Below, piece after piece: positions 3,945 through 58,201 of a stretch of DNA of 64,000 nucleotides. A model generated the notes under the pieces. The model saw only the letters and a list, made by a program, of their open reading frames with translations. It was not told the origin of the DNA and did not search any database. Numbering within the stretch: the first letter of the stretch is position 1; every line of letters starts with the position of its first letter. A program made the position numbers and the translations under genes. Source of the stretch: Escherichia coli (lineage in GTDB: Bacteria; Pseudomonadota; Gammaproteobacteria; Enterobacterales; Enterobacteriaceae); assembly GCF_001677475.2 (NCBI RefSeq), contig NZ_CP015229.1, one strand, 5' to 3'.

Positions 3945-6092
3945 TTACGCCAGTGCCGCTTCGCGCAGGCGAGTTTTCAACTTGTTGTACTCGTCAATCA
4001 CGTACTGCTCGGCGGCGCGCTGATCGGCGATCGGCTCGACGCGCACGGCGCAGTATTTGTATTCCGGCGTTTTCGTAATCGGGCTTAAGTTTTCGGTAAC
4101 CAGCTCGTTACAGGCACCAATCCACCACTGGTAGGTCATATAAATCGCCCCTTTGTTCGGACGATCGCTGACCTGCGCACGGGTGATAATTTTGCCTTTA
4201 CGCGAGTGCACCCAAACCAATGCCTCATCTTCAATACCCAGACGTTTGGCGTCTTCGGTATTGATTTGTGCGTAGCCAGGTTCATCAGCCAGCGCCGCCA
4301 GTGCCGCACAGTTACCGGTCATCGAACGGCAAGAGTAGTGACCAACTTCACGCACCGTTGACAGTACCATCGGATACTCGTCGGTGAGTTTGTCGATTGG
4401 CGCTACCCAGTCGCAGGTGAAGAACTGCGCCAGACCGTTCGGGGTATCAAACTTCTCTTTAAACAGATAAGAAGTCCCCTGATCGGCATCTGAAGTATCG
4501 CGGCAAGGCCACTGAATGAAGCCCAGTTCGCCCATTTTCTCGTAAGTCGCACCGTAGAAATCCGGGCACAGATGACGCAACTCATCCCAGATCTCCTGGG
4601 TGTTGTTGTAGTGCATCGGATAACCCATACGGGTGGCGATTTCACTGATGATTTGCCAGTCCGTTTTCAGATCCCATTTCGGTTCAACCGCTTTGAAGAA
4701 ACGCTGGAAGCCACGGTCAGCCGCAGTAAACACGCCTTCATGCTCGCCCCACGACGTTGACGGTAAAATAACATCCGCCGCCGACGCGGTTTTGGTCATA
4801 AAGATGTCCTGAACGATGACCAGTTCCAGATCTTCAAAGGCTTTACGTACTGCCGACAGCTCCGCGTCAGTTTGAAGCGGATCTTCGCCCATAATGTACG
4901 CGGCACGCACTTCACCATGCGCTGCGCGGTGCGGCAGCTCGCTGATGCGATAACCGGTATGAGCAGGCAGGCTTTCCACGCCCCAGGCTTTGGCGAATTT
5001 CTCGCGGTTAGCCGGATCTTTCACGTACTGGTATCCCGGATACGTATCCGGCAGCGCGCCCATATCGCAGGCACCCTGCACGTTGTTCTGACCACGAACC
5101 GGGTTTACACCCGCATGCGGCTTACCGAGGTTACCGGTCAGCATCGCGAGGCTGGTCAGAGAACGCACGGTTTCCACGCCCTGGTAGAACTGGGTTACAC
5201 CCATGCCCCACAGGATGGCGGCGCTTTTCGCCTGGGCATACATCCGTGCCGCCTGACGAATCTCACTGGCGCTGACGCCGGTGATATCTTCAACCGACTC
5301 CGGCGTGTAGCCTTCAACGATTTTACGATACTCTTCAAAGCCTTCTGTACGGGAAGCGACGAAAGCTTTGTCGTACAGGTTTTCTTCAATAATGACATGA
5401 CCCATCGCATTCAACAGCGCGATGTTCGAGCCGTTTTTCAGTGCAATGTGCATGTCAGCAATGCGCGCGGTTTCAATTTTGCGCGGATCGCAGACGATAA
5501 TTTTCGCCCCGTTACGTTTAGCGTTAATTACGTGGTTCGCCACGATTGGGTGGGAATCCGCCGGGTTGTACCCGAAAACGAACACTAAATCGGTATTATC
5601 AATTTCGTTAATAGCATTGCTCATTGCGCCATTACCGACCGATTGGTGCAGACCTGCAACCGATGGGCCGTGTCAGACACGAGCGCAGCAGTCAACGTTA
5701 TTGGTACCAATAACGGCGCGCGCAAATTTTTGCATTACATAGTTGGTTTCGTTACCCGTACCACGCGAGGAGCCGGTCGTCTGGATGGCATCCGGACCGT
5801 ACTTCTCTTTGATGGCGCTCAGGCGCTCGGCAACGTAATTCAGTGCCTCATCCCAGGAAACAGGTTCGAGTTTGCCGCCACGCTGGCGACGGATCATGGG
5901 GGTTTTCAGGCGCGGGGTCAGGATCTGGGTATCGTTAATGAAGTCCCAGCCATAATAACCCTTCAGACACAGGGTACCCTGGTTGGTTTTCCCCTGCGCT
6001 GCCTCCGCCCGGACGATTTTGCCGTTATCGACGACCAGGTTGATTTTGCAACCTGATGCGCAATAGGGGCAAACCGTGACGACTTTTTTCAT
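3945..6092 (-). CDS. fdhF: Formate dehydrogenase H, selenocysteine-containing molybdoenzyme (715 aa); in-frame UGA at 5673-5675 decoded as Sec
   Basis: ORF-track pieces 5673..6092 and 3945..5624 are in the same frame, separated only by TGA; read-through gives ...CCARV-U-HGPSVAGLHQSVGNGAMSNAINEIDNTDLVFVFGYNPADSHP..., the known FdhF sequence around Sec140. Confidence 0.95.
5630..5675 (-). other. Selenocysteine recoding site: UGA plus downstream SECIS hairpin in fdhF mRNA
   Basis: mRNA reads UGA-CACGGCCCAUCGGUUGCAGGUCUGCACCAAUCGGUCGGUAAUGGCG immediately 3' of the UGA, the classic fdhF SelB-binding stem-loop. Confidence 0.85.
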
Positions 6093-41133: not shown

Positions 41134-41415
41134 GGAGGACTCTCTTTCCTAGAATATCAGAATTATGGCAGGAGTGAGGGAGGATGACTGCGAGTGGGAG
41201 CACGGTTTTCACCCTCTTTTCAGAGAGGCGAGGGGACTGTCCGAGCATCATGAGGCCGAAAACTCTGCTTTTCAGGTAATTTATTCCCATAAACTCAGAT
41301 TTACTGCTGCTTCACGCAGGATCTGAGTTTATGGGAATGCTCAACCTGGAAGCCGGAGGTTTTCTGCAGATTCGCCTGCCATGATGAAGTTATTCAAGCA
41401 AGCCAGGAGATCTGC
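41134..41415. promoter_or_regulatory. melR/melAB divergent promoter region
   Basis: 282-bp spacer between divergent melR and melA; known to carry MelR and CRP sites. Individual sites not resolved here. Confidence 0.5.
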
Positions 41416-52385: not shown

Positions 52386-52412
52386 CCAGGAAGGATAAGA
52401 AGAACATAAAAA

Positions 52413-52586
52413 ATGGCACTATTCTCTAAAATATTAATTTTTTATGTGATTGGTGTGAACATATCCTTTGTCATTATCTGGTTTATCTCACATGAGAAAA
52501 CACATATTCGTTTACTTAGTGCATTCCTGGTCGGAATAACCTGGCCAATGAGTCTGCCTGTGGCATTACTTTTTTCTCTCTTTTAG
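52413..52586 (+). CDS. ghoT: Type V toxin GhoT (57-aa membrane-lytic peptide); absent from the ORF track
   Basis: Hand translation of atg gca cta ttc ... ttt tag gives MALFSKILIFYVIGVNISFVIIWFISHEKTHIRLLSAFLVGITWPMSLPVALLFSLF (two TM helices), 27 bp downstream of ghoS. Confidence 0.85.
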   Translation: MALFSKILIFYVIGVNISFVIIWFISHEKTHIRLLSAFLVGITWPMSLPVALLFSLF

Positions 52587-52704
52587 GAGCTGTAGTTGAG
52601 TGGACCCGCTGGTTATCTTGAAACGAAGCGTCTCTCCTCAAAACTGGATTTGCGGAACGACGAACGAAGCAGTCGCCTGACTGCTTCGTTCATTAAAGTG
52701 AAAT

Positions 52705-54222
52705 TTATTTCTGTGGGCGCATCGCCGGGAAGAGAATAACGTCGCGAATAGTATGACTGTTTGTAAACAGCATAATCATTCGGTCGATACCAATACCCAG
52801 ACCAGCGGTTGGCGGCAGACCATATTCCAGCGCAGTCACGTAATCTTCGTCATAGAACATGGCTTCGTCGTCACCTGCAGCTTTAGCGTTAACCTGTTCC
52901 TGGAAACGTTCAGCCTGATCTTCTGCATCGTTTAATTCGCTAAAACCATTACCGATTTCACGACCACCGATGAAGAATTCAAAACGGTCGGTGATTTCCG
53001 GGTTAACATCATTACGGCGCGCCAGCGGGGACACTTCTGCCGGATATTCCGTAATAAAGGTTGGCTGAATCAGATGTGCTTCTGCCACTTCATCAAAGAT
53101 CTCCGTAACAATACGTCCCAGACCCCAGCTTTTCTCTACCGTAATTCCGATAGATTCAGCTAATGCTTTAGCGGCATCAAAATTATCCAGGTCGGCCATA
53201 TCGGTTTCTGGACGATATTTTTTGATTGCTTCGCGCATGGTGAGTTTTTCAAACGGTTTGCCGAAATCAAACACATGCTCGCCATAAGTGACTTTAGTGG
53301 TACCCAGAACCTCTTGTGCCAGGGTGCGGAACAGTGACTCTGTCAGTTCAATCAAATCGTGGTAATCCGCATACGCCATGTAGAGTTCCATCATTGTGAA
53401 CTCAGGATTATGGCGAACAGAAATGCCTTCATTACGGAAGTTACGGTTGATTTCGAATACCCGTTCAAAACCGCCTACAACCAGACGTTTCAGATACAGC
53501 TCCGGCGCAATACGCAGGTACATATCTAAATCCAGAGCGTTATGATGGGTAATAAACGGGCGAGCAGATGCCCCACCTGGAATTACCTGCATCATCGGGG
53601 TTTCTACTTCCATAAAGCCGCGCGCGACCATGAACTGGCGGATAGCGGCCAGAATTTTTGAACGGACAACAAACGTTTGACGGGATTTATCGTTAGCGAT
53701 GAGGTCCAGATAACGTTGACGATAACGGACTTCCTGATCCTGCAGACCATGGAATTTATCTGGTAAAGGACGTAGTGCTTTTGTCAGCAGGCGCAACTCA
53801 GTACAGTGAATGGAAAGCTCACCCGTTTGCGTCTTAAACAGCGTACCGCGGGCACCGATAATGTCACCCAGATCCCATTTTTTAAACTGATCGTTATAAA
53901 CACCTTCTGGCAGGCTATCTCGTGCGACGTACAGTTGAATACGGCCACCGACATCCTGCAACGTTACAAAGGAGGCTTTCCCCATGATACGACGGGTCAT
54001 CATTCGGCCAGCAACCGAGACTTCAATGTTTAAGGATTCCAGTTCCTGGTTATCCTTCGCATCAAACTCTTCGTGCAACTGGTCAGAGGTATGGTCGCGG
54101 CGAAAATCATTGGGAAACGCCACACCTTGCTGACGTAGTGCCGCCAGCTTTTCGCGGCGATTTCTCAGTTCATCGTTAAAATCAATAGCCTCATTGGCTC
54201 CCCGTGTTTCTCGTTCAGACAT
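52705..54222 (-). CDS. lysU: Lysyl-tRNA synthetase, inducible isozyme
   Basis: ATG at 54222 gives MSE(R/Q)[30 protein letters not shown]... (505 aa); class II aaRS motifs. Confidence 0.92.
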
Positions 54223-54458
54223 TTTGGTTCCTCTAAATCCAGCTTTCAATTTAGCGTAGATAAAGAGACAGATCGGTACACTGTATTATCTGCCTCGACT
54301 ATTAATAACTCAGTTTATCTTATCGAAACTAACGCTTACCTCAAGTTGATATCACTAATAAATAACCATCAAAATGGTTTAAATGACTTATTAATCTCGA
54401 TTTATTAGTGTGATAAACTAAAAGTTAGTTTATTCATAACCAATTGTTTTTACGACAG

Positions 54459-55916
54459 TTAATCGTTGCTCTCCTGTATCATATTTGTCGGCGTGCTAAA
54501 CAGATAACGGGCAGCAAAGGCCAATACCACGATGATCGCGACACAAGCCAACGTCCACTCTCCCATCTGAGAAAAGAATCGCTGGTAAGCTGCAATTGCC
54601 ATTCCGCTAATTTGCGACTCTGTCGTCTGCTGTGCCACGACGCCTGCCAGCCAGTTGGCGACCGCGCCTGTTGCCAGCATATAAATACCGGTTAATACGC
54701 CAGACATTTTCAGACGCGTGATTTGCGCAATCGCCACCGGGTCAATAAAGAGTTCGGCAAAGCCCATTAGCGCCAGCCCGGATATCATCACGCCCATTGA
54801 CGCTTGACCGTCAGCCGCTGCATGTCGGGCATCAAATGCCAGCAACATAAAGCCACAAGCCATCAGCAATAAGCCAAAGGCAAACCTCAGCCAGACGCGC
54901 AATGTTGAGTTGCCGTGGCTTTCTGGCGACGCCAGCCAGGCCAGAACAACCCCAGCGAGCATCACCGCAATTGCGTTCACTGACTGGAATAGTGCAGTAG
55001 GTACTTCAATATTGAATGCCTGACGATTCACAAAGCGATCGATAAACAAACTGATGGTACTGCCGCCCTGTTGTGCCAGTACCCAGAACAACGTCCCGAC
55101 AAACATCAACAATACAATTTGCCAAAGAGCACGGCGGTGTTCGGGGAATTTGATCATCATGCGGGCAATGATTTGTGCGGCAATGAGGCAAACGATCGCC
55201 AGCAAATATCCCGACCAGTCGTTCTCCAGCAGCAGGGTAAAAAATACTGGGGCTAAACAGAGCATCACCACTAACCAGCTCCATACTGGTAAGGCAAATT
55301 TCACGCTAGTGAGCGCTTTCTTATCCATACTACGCGTGGACTGGAAATGACGATGACCGCTTAAGAAAATCAACAAACCGATAAACATGCCGCCACCCGC
55401 AAGGGCAAAGCCAACATGCCATCCATACCACTGAGCAGCCAGGCCGCAGGCGATGGGGGCGGCGATAGAACCGATATTGCCCGCAGCATACAGCAGCGAA
55501 AAACCGCCATCACGTCGATGATCGTTCTCGTCGTAGAGCTCGCCAAGCAAACAGCTGATGTTTGATTTGAATAAACCGTAGCCACAAATAATGATTGCCA
55601 GCGCCAGATACAGGCTAAAGGTTGAATTTGTATCAATGCCCAGCACTACATGGCCAAGGGTCATTAACAGCGCGCCGGCAATTACCGCAGTACGATTGCC
55701 GAGCAGGCGGTCGGCAAGCCAGCCGCCGAGAATAGGGGTAACGTAAACCAGAGATGCATATGCGCTGAACAGGCTGATGGCATGGTTATCATCAAAACCA
55801 AGCTGATGGGTGAGATAGAGAATGAGCAAGGCACGCATGCCGTAAAAACTGAAGTACTCCCAGATTTGGATCGCCACGATATAGTATATCGCGCGCGGCT
55901 GTGAGGGTGTTTTCAT
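54459..55916 (-). CDS. dtpC: Dipeptide/tripeptide:proton symporter DtpC (YjdL), POT family
   Basis: 485-aa 14-[41 protein letters not shown]... Confidence 0.92.
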
Positions 55917-55931
55917 GTGTTCTCCTTATGA

Positions 55932-55963
55932 GCAAAAAAGGGAAGTGGCAAGCCACTTCCCTT
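55932..55963 (-). terminator. Rho-independent terminator of the cadBA operon
   Basis: aagggaagtgg-caag-ccacttccctt stem followed on the minus strand by TTTTTTGC. Confidence 0.8.
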
Positions 55964-55974
55964 GTACGAGCTAA

Positions 55975-58122
55975 TTATTTTTTGCTTTCTTCTTTCAATA
56001 CTTTAACGGTATAGCGGCCATCAGCCTGACGGTATGCACCGTGAATATCGGTTTCAAAGCCCGGATAGTGAGCGCCGATTTCACACAGCATCTGCAGGAA
56101 CTCCAGAACCGGACGGCTTTCTTCGGTGATCATTTCTCCCGGCATTACCAGAGGAACTCCCGGCGGATACGGAAGGATCATATTGGCGTTAATACGACCG
56201 ACCATTTCGTCGAGGTAAACTTCTTCGGTCATACCGTGCAGCTCTTTCTGGAACGCAGCATACGGAGTCATTACCATCGTCGGCAGCACTTCAAATGCGC
56301 GATACATCAGATCCGGCAGATTGTGGTGAACAATCAGTTTGTGGATATTCTGAGCCAGTTCCTGAATACGCATGTTTTCATAGAATTCAGGATCTTCACG
56401 ATACAGAGACGGCAGCATGTTTTTCACACGCAGGTTCAGGTCGAACGCACGTTTGAAGTCAGTCAGAGCACGCAGCAGGCTCAGTGCTTTGGTCTTATCG
56501 ATACCGATGCTGAACAGGAACAGCAGGTTATACGGACCGGTTTTCTCAACAACGATGCCATGTTCGTCGAGGTATTTCGCCACGATGCTGGCCGGAATAC
56601 CAAAGTCGCTCATGGTGCCGTCTTTTTCCATCCCCGGAGTCAGCAGGGTGACTTTGATCGGGTCAAGATACATGTGCTCGTTATCGATGTTTTTGAAGCC
56701 GTGCCAGGTGCTGTCAGAACGCAGCGGCCAGCATTCAGTCGTATCGATATGATCCGGCTGCCAAACATCAAAGAACCAGCCATCAGATTCCGTTCTCAGA
56801 CGTTTGATCTCTTTACGGAATTTGATCGCACGTTCAATGGAACCGTTGATCAGACGCTTACCAGCATTACCTTTCATCATCGCCGCTGCGGTTTCAGTGG
56901 ACGCCACGATACCGTAGTGCGGAGAAGTGGTGGTGTGCATCATGTAGGCTTCGTTAAAGGTTTCTTCGTTTACGTCACCTTTAACGTGGATCATGGAAGC
57001 CTGAGAGAACGCCGCCAGCAGTTTGTGAGTAGACTGGGTTTCGTAAATCACTTTCCCTTCTACACGGCCACCGCTCATACCGCATTTACCTTCGTAAATC
57101 GGTGAGAAGTTGGTGTAAGGCACCCACGCGGAGTCAAAGTGGATGGATTTCACATCCAGTGTTTTCTTGATGAAGTCGGTGTTGTACAGCAGACCATCAT
57201 AGGTAGAGTTGGTAATTACAGCATGTACCGGCCAGGTTGCGTTTGGTGTTTCTTTCACGCGCTTAGCAATGGTAGCGTGCTGGAATTCACTCTGTGGGAT
57301 ACCACCAAGAATACCGTAAGCGTTACGGGTCGGGCGGAAATAGATTGGCGTAACATCGCTCATCATCATCAGGTGGGTCAGCGATTTGTGGCAGTTACGG
57401 TCAATCAGAATGGTGCTGCCTGCCGGAGCAGAGTACATACCAACAATTTTGTTCGCAGTGGAAGTACCGTTGGTCACCATGTAGCTGCGGTCTGCGTTAA
57501 AGACGCGAGCGATATACTGTTCTGCTTCTTTGTGTGGACCACTGTGATCCAGCAGAGAACCCAGTTCAGATACTGAAATGGAAATATCAGATTTCATGGT
57601 GTTCGGACCAAAGAAATCATAGAACAGGCTACCTACCGGGCTTTTCTGGAATGCAGTACCGCCCATGTGACCAGGAGTACAGAAAGTATATTTACCTTCA
57701 CGAACATATTTAAACAGTGCTTTGGTCAGCGGAGGCAGAATAGTGTTGATATATTCGTCAGTGGTCTGCTTGATCTTGTTAGCAATATCTTCAGCAGCAC
57801 CCAGCGCATATTCAAAGAAGCTAATCTGTAAACGCAGGTCATTCAGGCTTACATCGAGAGTGGAATACGTATTAGCGAACGCGTACAACGGCAGGTTCTC
57901 GTTCATTTTGCTAATTTCTTCGCACAGCTCGAGATTATATTTATCCCAGTCAAAAATAACGCCGCACAGACGCGCATTGTTTTCGATCAGTTTTAATAAG
58001 TCGTCACGGTCGTTCGGGTAAACAATCTGGAAGTTCAGACGTTCAAGCGCGCGATGAAGTTCACGGATGGGTTCTTCTTTAAAATAAACCCCCATGTGAT
58101 TCAATATTGCAATAACGTTCAT
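55975..58122 (-). CDS. cadA: Inducible lysine decarboxylase
   Basis: 715 aa from the ATG at 58122 (MNVIAILNHMGVYFKEEPIRELH...); PLP-lysine motif YETQSTHKLL; ORF-track start at 58161 is an extension. Confidence 0.95.
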   Translation of the reverse strand: MNVIAILNHMGVYFKEEPIRELHRALERLNFQIVYPNDRDDLLKLIENNARLCGVIFDWDKYNLELCEEISKMNENLPLYAFANTYSTLDVSLNDLRLQISFFEYALGAAEDIANKIKQTTDEYINTILPPLTKALFKYVREGKYTFCTPGHMGGTAFQKSPVGSLFYDFFGPNTMKSDISISVSELGSLLDHSGPHKEAEQYIARVFNADRSYMVTNGTSTANKIVGMYSAPAGSTILIDRNCHKSLTHLMMMSDVTPIYFRPTRNAYGILGGIPQSEFQHATIAKRVKETPNATWPVHAVITNSTYDGLLYNTDFIKKTLDVKSIHFDSAWVPYTNFSPIYEGKCGMSGGRVEGKVIYETQSTHKLLAAFSQASMIHVKGDVNEETFNEAYMMHTTTSPHYGIVASTETAAAMMKGNAGKRLINGSIERAIKFRKEIKRLRTESDGWFFDVWQPDHIDTTECWPLRSDSTWHGFKNIDNEHMYLDPIKVTLLTPGMEKDGTMSDFGIPASIVAKYLDEHGIVVEKTGPYNLLFLFSIGIDKTKALSLLRALTDFKRAFDLNLRVKNMLPSLYREDPEFYENMRIQELAQNIHKLIVHHNLPDLMYRAFEVLPTMVMTPYAAFQKELHGMTEEVYLDEMVGRINANMILPYPPGVPLVMPGEMITEESRPVLEFLQMLCEIGAHYPGFETDIHGAYRQADGRYTVKVLKEESKK

Positions 58123-58201
58123 AGTCATATCTCCAGGTAAAAAAGGCCCCTCCCAACACATGGGACAAAATGAAAGGAGGAGCCTCGGAAAATACTTTTA
58201 A

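Follow-up and report, generated by a model that had tools for sequence, protein, structure and literature searches.

The dtpC-lysU spacer and its inverted repeat

Within the 64-kb stretch of Escherichia coli DNA that was analyzed (the window), cadA (55975-58161), dtpC, and lysU all lie on the minus strand, and the element described here occupies the spacer between the last two. The lysU product is 99.8% identical to its K-12 counterpart, which is sited between ghoT and dtpC (RefSeq/PGAP names the gene lysS). The GC content of the spacer is 30.5%, as against 51.6% for the whole window. The genes and the parts of the element are as follows.

52705-54222, minus strand: lysU, lysyl-tRNA synthetase, inducible form (505 aa)
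54459-55916, minus strand: dtpC (yjdL), dipeptide/tripeptide permease
54223-54458, minus strand: dtpC-lysU spacer of 236 bp, the lysU regulatory region, with an Lrp SELEX peak and Lrp ChIP-seq signal
54353-54363: lysU-proximal arm of the repeat, CACTAATAAAT on the plus strand and ATTTATTAGTG on the gene strand, exact reverse complement of 54400-54410
54400-54410: distal arm of the repeat, ATTTATTAGTG on the plus strand and CACTAATAAAT on the gene strand, polymorphic
54364-54379: inner small palindrome AACCA-TCAAAA-TGGTT, confirmed by a sequence check
54335-54428: extended imperfect inverted repeat with 29-nt arms (54335-54363 and 54400-54428) that are 76% complementary, found by a repeat search with mismatches

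The initial annotation had reported a pair of inverted arms enclosing a smaller hairpin between dtpC and lysU, and its geometry proved accurate throughout. The outer arms are complementary at 11 of 11 positions and are separated by 36 nt; the inner hairpin (AACCA at 54364-54368, the loop TCAAAA, and TGGTT at 54375-54379) abuts the left arm; and the element as a whole lies 131 to 188 nt upstream of the lysU ATG and 49 to 106 nt past the dtpC stop codon. When the arms are extended to ~20 nt, the repeat search finds them 85% alike. Just distal to the element, at 54413-54433, there is a second perfect palindrome, ATAAACTAA-N3-TTAGTTTAT, which is imperfect in K-12, so that this AT-rich spacer contains more than one symmetry peculiar to some lineages.

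The spacer itself is missing from ~200 to 250 of 5,426 complete E. coli genomes. In one record, NZ_CP025842.1, just the part next to dtpC is left, so that the part next to lysU may have been deleted, and three copies of the spacer are found on plasmid-typed records.

How unusual the repeat is

Of 1,000 dinucleotide shuffles of the 236-bp spacer, only 4 (0.4%) contained a perfect inverted repeat of 11 bp or more whose arms were no more than 60 nt apart. Folded as single-stranded DNA, the element gave a z score of -4.25. Across the whole 64-kb window, nine perfect inverted repeats of such size were seen, compared with ~1 expected by chance. The remaining eight contain G+C, and most of them have loops of 4 to 6 nt and resemble terminators or known operators, so that the repeat upstream of lysU is the sole case among the nine that combines a nearly all-A/T sequence with a long spacer. 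The lysU repeat is thus locally unusual, yet one chance repeat is expected per window; once the reading of all 64 kb is taken into account, a chance origin is unlikely. We saw nothing to suggest a multicopy repeat (mobile-element ends, MITE, or REP), as the sequence occupies a single place per genome in ~5,170 E. coli genomes.

One of those eight, the 18-bp repeat ATTCCCATAAACTCAGAT in the melR-melA intergenic region (41283-41300 and 41321-41338, with a 20-nt spacer), exceeds every other perfect inverted repeat of the window in length and presumably corresponds to the known MelR operator sites. Another 11-bp perfect, A/T-rich inverted repeat, ACATAAAAAAT and ATTTTTTATGT at 52404-52414 and 52437-52447, lies across the ghoS-ghoT junction and the ghoT start codon (52413).

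The perfect repeat is a minority allele

We counted exact 58-nt alleles of the element in the same ~5,170 complete E. coli genomes. The allele of the window (AT), which makes the repeat perfect, is present in 148 of them (2.9%). The K-12 allele (AC), in which the arms are complementary at 10 of 11 positions, is found in 1,415 genomes, a GT allele is found in 1,755, and a GC allele, which also carries a loop change, is found in 608. The common alleles, including that of K-12, have one or two noncomplementary positions, and these fall in the distal arm, which reads CACTAACAAAT in K-12 and CACTAGTAAAT in another strain.

The same asymmetry was apparent in an alignment of 16 Escherichia sequences drawn from E. 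coli, E. albertii, three other Escherichia-labelled genomes, and ten metagenome contigs (a metagenome scan gave 10 loci, all of which were entered). At positions 6 and 7 of the distal arm on the gene strand, AT, AC, GT, and GC were all found, together with more divergent forms, and all four combinations coexist with an invariant proximal arm, which is unchanged in 15 of the 16 sequences. Considered as a dyad-symmetric operator, in which both arms are conserved and the symmetry is kept among relatives, the element failed, its distal arm being polymorphic.

As a neutral yardstick, we used the fourfold-degenerate sites of dtpC and lysU, at which identity ranges from 0.69 to 0.95 depending on the lineage. 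The identity of the distal arm to other Escherichia lineages (0.64 to 0.82) is near this rate, with E. albertii identical, and the distal arm taken together with the sequence beyond it (0.64 to 0.85, compared with 0.69 to 0.90 at fourfold sites) also diverges at about the fourfold-site rate. The 36-nt interior of the repeat is conserved equally to fourfold sites or slightly above them in several comparisons. In five of six lineage comparisons the proximal arm does not differ at all (100% identity), and both this arm and the sequence from there to lysU (54223-54352) show identities of 0.90 to 1.00 across Escherichia lineages. This unequal conservation across 54223-54410 places a boundary of constraint within the element. 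The initial annotation had made its proposal depend on conservation, which thus extends to the proximal arm and not to the distal one.

Within the interior, the inner stem AACCA/TGGTT is retained, with a variable loop, in most Escherichia sequences and is broken without compensation in the lineages L004 and L065/L066. E. albertii also has a perfect repeat, and in L004 a T-A-to-C-G change preserves pair 7 of the arms, accompanied by a new mismatch at pair 4. On the basis of the E. albertii repeat and the L004 change, some selection for the symmetry of the repeat may have operated.

Promoter candidates and a conserved box next to the proximal arm

A standard promoter and terminator scan of the lysU region returned a sole minus-strand promoter-like match, which overlaps the lysU ATG. 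A relaxed scan and a comparison with other genera brought out three sites in the spacer.

54285-54290, minus strand: GATAAT, the best candidate for the lysU -10 hexamer (relaxed promoter scan), invariant in all Escherichia compared
54317-54322, minus strand: TAAGAT, a -10-like hexamer with TTGAGG 16 nt upstream (8/12 match, relaxed scan)
54347-54356, minus strand: conserved box AGTGATATCA (AGTGAnATCA), which shares 4 nt with the proximal arm

From the GATAAT candidate we infer a lysU transcription start site (TSS) near 54278. Judged by its sequence, TAAGAT is a candidate upstream promoter of lysU, whose TSS would fall near 54310, and a similar hexamer ~100 nt upstream of the lysU ATG is common to Escherichia, Klebsiella, and Raoultella.

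The AGTGAnATCA box has one match in the whole 64-kb window. Its distance upstream from the lysU start codon is 134 to 135 nt in Escherichia and in a number of loci from Klebsiella and R. terrigena, and it ranges from 86 to 179 nt in the other loci of Klebsiella, Raoultella, and Buttiauxella. In L054, the box occupies 4674-4683. Its core has stayed invariant while the rest of the spacer diverged. A Klebsiella-type block, GGCTGA-GTGAnA-TCAGCC, aligns with TTAGTGATATCAAC of Escherichia, and the box is followed by TGA(A/G)GT(A/G)A and then by the TAAGAT -10-like hexamer. The conservation of the proximal arm is explained, not by the inverted repeat, but by its position at the edge of this conserved promoter-upstream block and by its overlap with the AGTGATATCA box. 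As to what the box might be, a doubtful but specific suggestion is that it is an ancestral lysU control element, either an operator centered near -41.5 of an upstream promoter or a leader motif in dtpC-lysU read-through RNA. Comparison by eye with sigma-54, sigma-32, CRP, FNR, and Cra sites gave no convincing match.

Lrp and H-NS at the spacer

That Lrp represses lysU from a long AT-rich stretch upstream of the gene is textbook E. coli regulation. Lin et al. in 1992 reportedly saw DNase I protection by Lrp, or altered sensitivity, ~60 to 160 nt upstream of the lysU TSS, Gazeau et al. are said to have dissected the Lrp-binding region of lysU in 1994, and Ito et al. reportedly described silencing of lysU by H-NS in the same year. 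Counted from the putative TSS near 54278, the Lrp footprint would presumably cover 54338-54438 and span the whole element, which, given that TSS, would run from about -75 to -132 and fall within the -60 to -160 that were reported.

The Lrp region of lysU (Lin 1992; Gazeau 1992, 1994) and the spacer of the window are the same locus, AT-rich, bound by Lrp, and repressed by it. The region in the literature is extended (>100 bp) and has multiple sites, whereas the feature considered here is an 11-bp dyad, and K-12, the strain of the lysU Lrp studies, lacks the perfect form of it.

Published genome-scale data bear directly on two points of the initial annotation, which had cited regulation of lysU by Lrp and had named ChIP data over the spacer as the way to check its proposal. 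By Northern blotting, lysU mRNA is barely detectable in wild-type cells and plentiful when lrp is mutated, and a genomic SELEX peak for Lrp is listed for the lysU/yjdL(dtpC) spacer (PMC5320599; the peak is in its Table S1). By ChIP-seq, Lrp occupies the lysU TSS, and leucine reduces this occupancy and does not abolish it (PMC10127797). Regulation by Lrp is therefore borne out by derepression in the mutant, by SELEX, and by ChIP-seq (PMC5320599, PMC10127797), and the occupancy data asked for exist, at the lysU TSS and in the spacer. The DNA bound by Lrp at lysU in these published SELEX and ChIP-seq data includes the element at the resolution of the whole spacer, not of 58 bp. Over the genome as a whole, AT content is the main predictor of where Lrp binds and motifs are a weak one, and cooperative spreading has been proposed (bioRxiv 10.1101/276808).

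We scanned the spacer with a 15-bp Lrp consensus, YAGHAWATTWTDCTR. The best match (three mismatches, 54406-54420, minus strand) overlaps the distal arm, and its mirror copy at 54343-54357 is centered 63 bp away, ~six helical turns; the extended arms AGTTGATATCACTA and AGTTTATCACACTA are weak matches to this consensus. Matches with at most four mismatches numbered 4 in the spacer, against 5.8 ± 2.5 in AT-matched shuffles, the motif being poorly predictive, and neither a scan of the window nor the mismatch profile of the spacer showed any excess of Lrp-consensus matches over AT-matched shuffles.

For H-NS, the scan of the spacer found no exact copy of the high-affinity motif TCGATAAATT. Three matches with two mismatches are present in these 236 bp, one of which (54397-54406) overlaps the distal arm; in DNA so rich in AT, such matches are weak evidence. 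The spacer shares with H-NS-silenced promoter regions, such as the neighboring cadBA promoter, its AT-richness (30.5% versus 51.6% GC) and its near-motifs and differs from them in having neither an exact high-affinity motif nor A-tract phasing. The helical periodicity of AA/TT (9.5 to 11.5 bp) was not above that of shuffles (P = 0.24 to 0.47), and a scan with the IHF consensus found no site inside the element. It had been proposed that the symmetric element might be a protein-binding or curvature site. What stands of this is an AT-rich, regulator-bound region upstream of lysU; the part that concerns the symmetric element itself is not supported by the alleles, the drift of the distal arm, or the motif and phasing data.

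Interpretation of the repeat

We consider it probable that the segment is an AT-rich platform for repression by Lrp and probably H-NS, that the proximal arm belongs to a conserved block, and that the perfect dyad is fortuitous and restricted to some lineages. Lrp, and probably H-NS too, would build up a long repressive nucleoprotein complex immediately upstream of the lysU core promoter, to which the element would contribute only as a generic AT-rich substrate. The proximal arm would be part of the conserved promoter-upstream block, and the distal arm, drifting at about the fourfold-site rate, would have become perfectly complementary to it by accident in the lineage of this strain. The best reading of the sequence comparisons is that the 11-bp perfect repeat is not a discrete functional unit. 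Since the repeat is a rare variant inside an AT-rich region already known to bind Lrp, it is most likely ordinary, and the feature upstream of lysU is already covered by the known regulation of the gene: the dyad adds nothing to it that the population data support.

An alternative that we regard as unlikely is that the two arms work together as protein-binding sites (e.g., for a pair of Lrp dimers on one face of the DNA, or as a looping operator) and that their symmetry aids the repressing complex. The local improbability of the repeat in spacer shuffles, the likeness of the ~20-nt extended arms, the six-turn distance between the best Lrp match on the distal arm and its mirror, the perfect repeat in E. 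albertii, and the one compensatory-looking change in L004 all speak for such a pair. Against it, the arm centers are 47 bp apart (~4.5 helical turns), which would put the arms on opposite faces; Lrp-consensus matches are no commoner in the spacer than in its AT-matched shuffles; the distal arm is found with every one of the four combinations, its divergence being close to that of fourfold sites; and the perfect allele is confined to 2.9% of E. coli genomes. This last figure also separates the lysU element from MelR-type dyad operators, which it resembles in being a perfect inverted repeat in an intergenic regulatory region.

It is more improbable still that the whole matter is pure coincidence, the segment distal to ~54364 being neutral spacer DNA used by no regulator. 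The fact that chance should give ~1 inverted repeat of 11 bp or more in 64 kb, the divergence of the distal arm and the sequence beyond it at about the fourfold-site rate, and the lack of helical phasing and of an IHF site within the element would all fit such an account, but SELEX and ChIP-seq place Lrp in the 236-bp spacer, and the 36-nt interior is in several comparisons somewhat more conserved than fourfold sites. The Lrp footprint, which reportedly reaches to ~-160, also stands against it.

For scans that start from sequence only, the case carries a caution, in that a perfect dyad in AT-rich promoter DNA may turn out to be an uncommon allele and not an operator. The four natural alleles of the distal arm also offer a ready-made test of the role of this segment in repression by Lrp and H-NS.

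The element as RNA

Because the element follows the dtpC stop codon on the transcribed strand, it was also considered as an RNA hairpin in the dtpC 3' untranslated region or in dtpC-lysU read-through RNA, where it would terminate or stabilize dtpC mRNA or modulate read-through. The two genes share a strand and the scan found no canonical terminator for dtpC, so read-through is possible, and on the minus strand the RNA is predicted to fold into nested hairpins at -21.9 kcal/mol. This fold has a z score of only -1.8, however, and 9 of 200 shuffles folded as well or better. The GT allele would preserve the pairing as a G-U wobble, but the K-12 and GC alleles would give a C-A mismatch, and the uncompensated breaks in the inner stem of L004 and L065/L066 also count against a hairpin. 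Overall, there was no covariation supporting the helices: the changes in the arms mostly break pairs, and one is compensatory looking. A search of 54000-54700 against Rfam at permissive E values matched no family and returned a single subthreshold snoRNA match (E = 1.5), and the Term-seq tables examined list no 3' end for dtpC or lysU.

An intrinsic terminator of dtpC was rejected, there being no terminator-like site in 54100-54600. Like intrinsic (Rho-independent) terminators, the element is a nested inverted repeat after a stop codon; unlike them, it has a nearly all-A/T stem, which is followed by ATATCAAC with no U-tract, and a 36-nt interior. Two short-loop, perfect, terminator-like hairpins do occur nearby, one right after the lysU stop codon (52662-52691) and one in the cadA-dtpC spacer (55938-55963), and these, which belong to the nine perfect repeats of the window, have 4-nt loops and stems that contain G+C; no comparable hairpin follows dtpC. 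On this evidence, a functional RNA hairpin is very improbable.

The dtpC-lysU spacer in other genera

With the repeat probably accounted for by the AT-rich repression platform, two things only might merit further work: the AGTGAnATCA box shared between genera, and the spacer of Klebsiella and Raoultella, which is GC-rich and structured. The spacer shifts in composition from 31% GC in Escherichia to ~55% in Klebsiella-type loci, which are the following.

L054:4476-4810, L050, L022, L021, L019, L008, L011, L013, L007, and L037: dtpC-lysU loci of Klebsiella, Raoultella, and Buttiauxella

In these three genera the spacer is 200 to 390 bp long, has a GC content of 41 to 57%, and contains hairpins and conserved blocks, among them invariant blocks such as AGGAGGAGGATATTCTG. 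Compensatory changes are few (CCAGG and CCTGG are swapped in Buttiauxella). Rfam searches with four Klebsiella, Raoultella, and Buttiauxella loci gave no match, and neither a sigma-70 promoter nor a terminator was found in the two loci scanned, those of K. pneumoniae (L054) and R. planticola (L011). Its sequence suggests that the Klebsiella-type spacer may be a structured leader or read-through region. A leader peptide was rejected, as reading frames in this spacer are not conserved.

A third arrangement is found in Pseudescherichia vulneris and its relatives (L028, L030, and L033; ~4470-4488), in which the gap between dtpC and lysU is just 17 bp and the regulatory spacer is absent, suggesting that the two genes are cotranscribed in these three loci.
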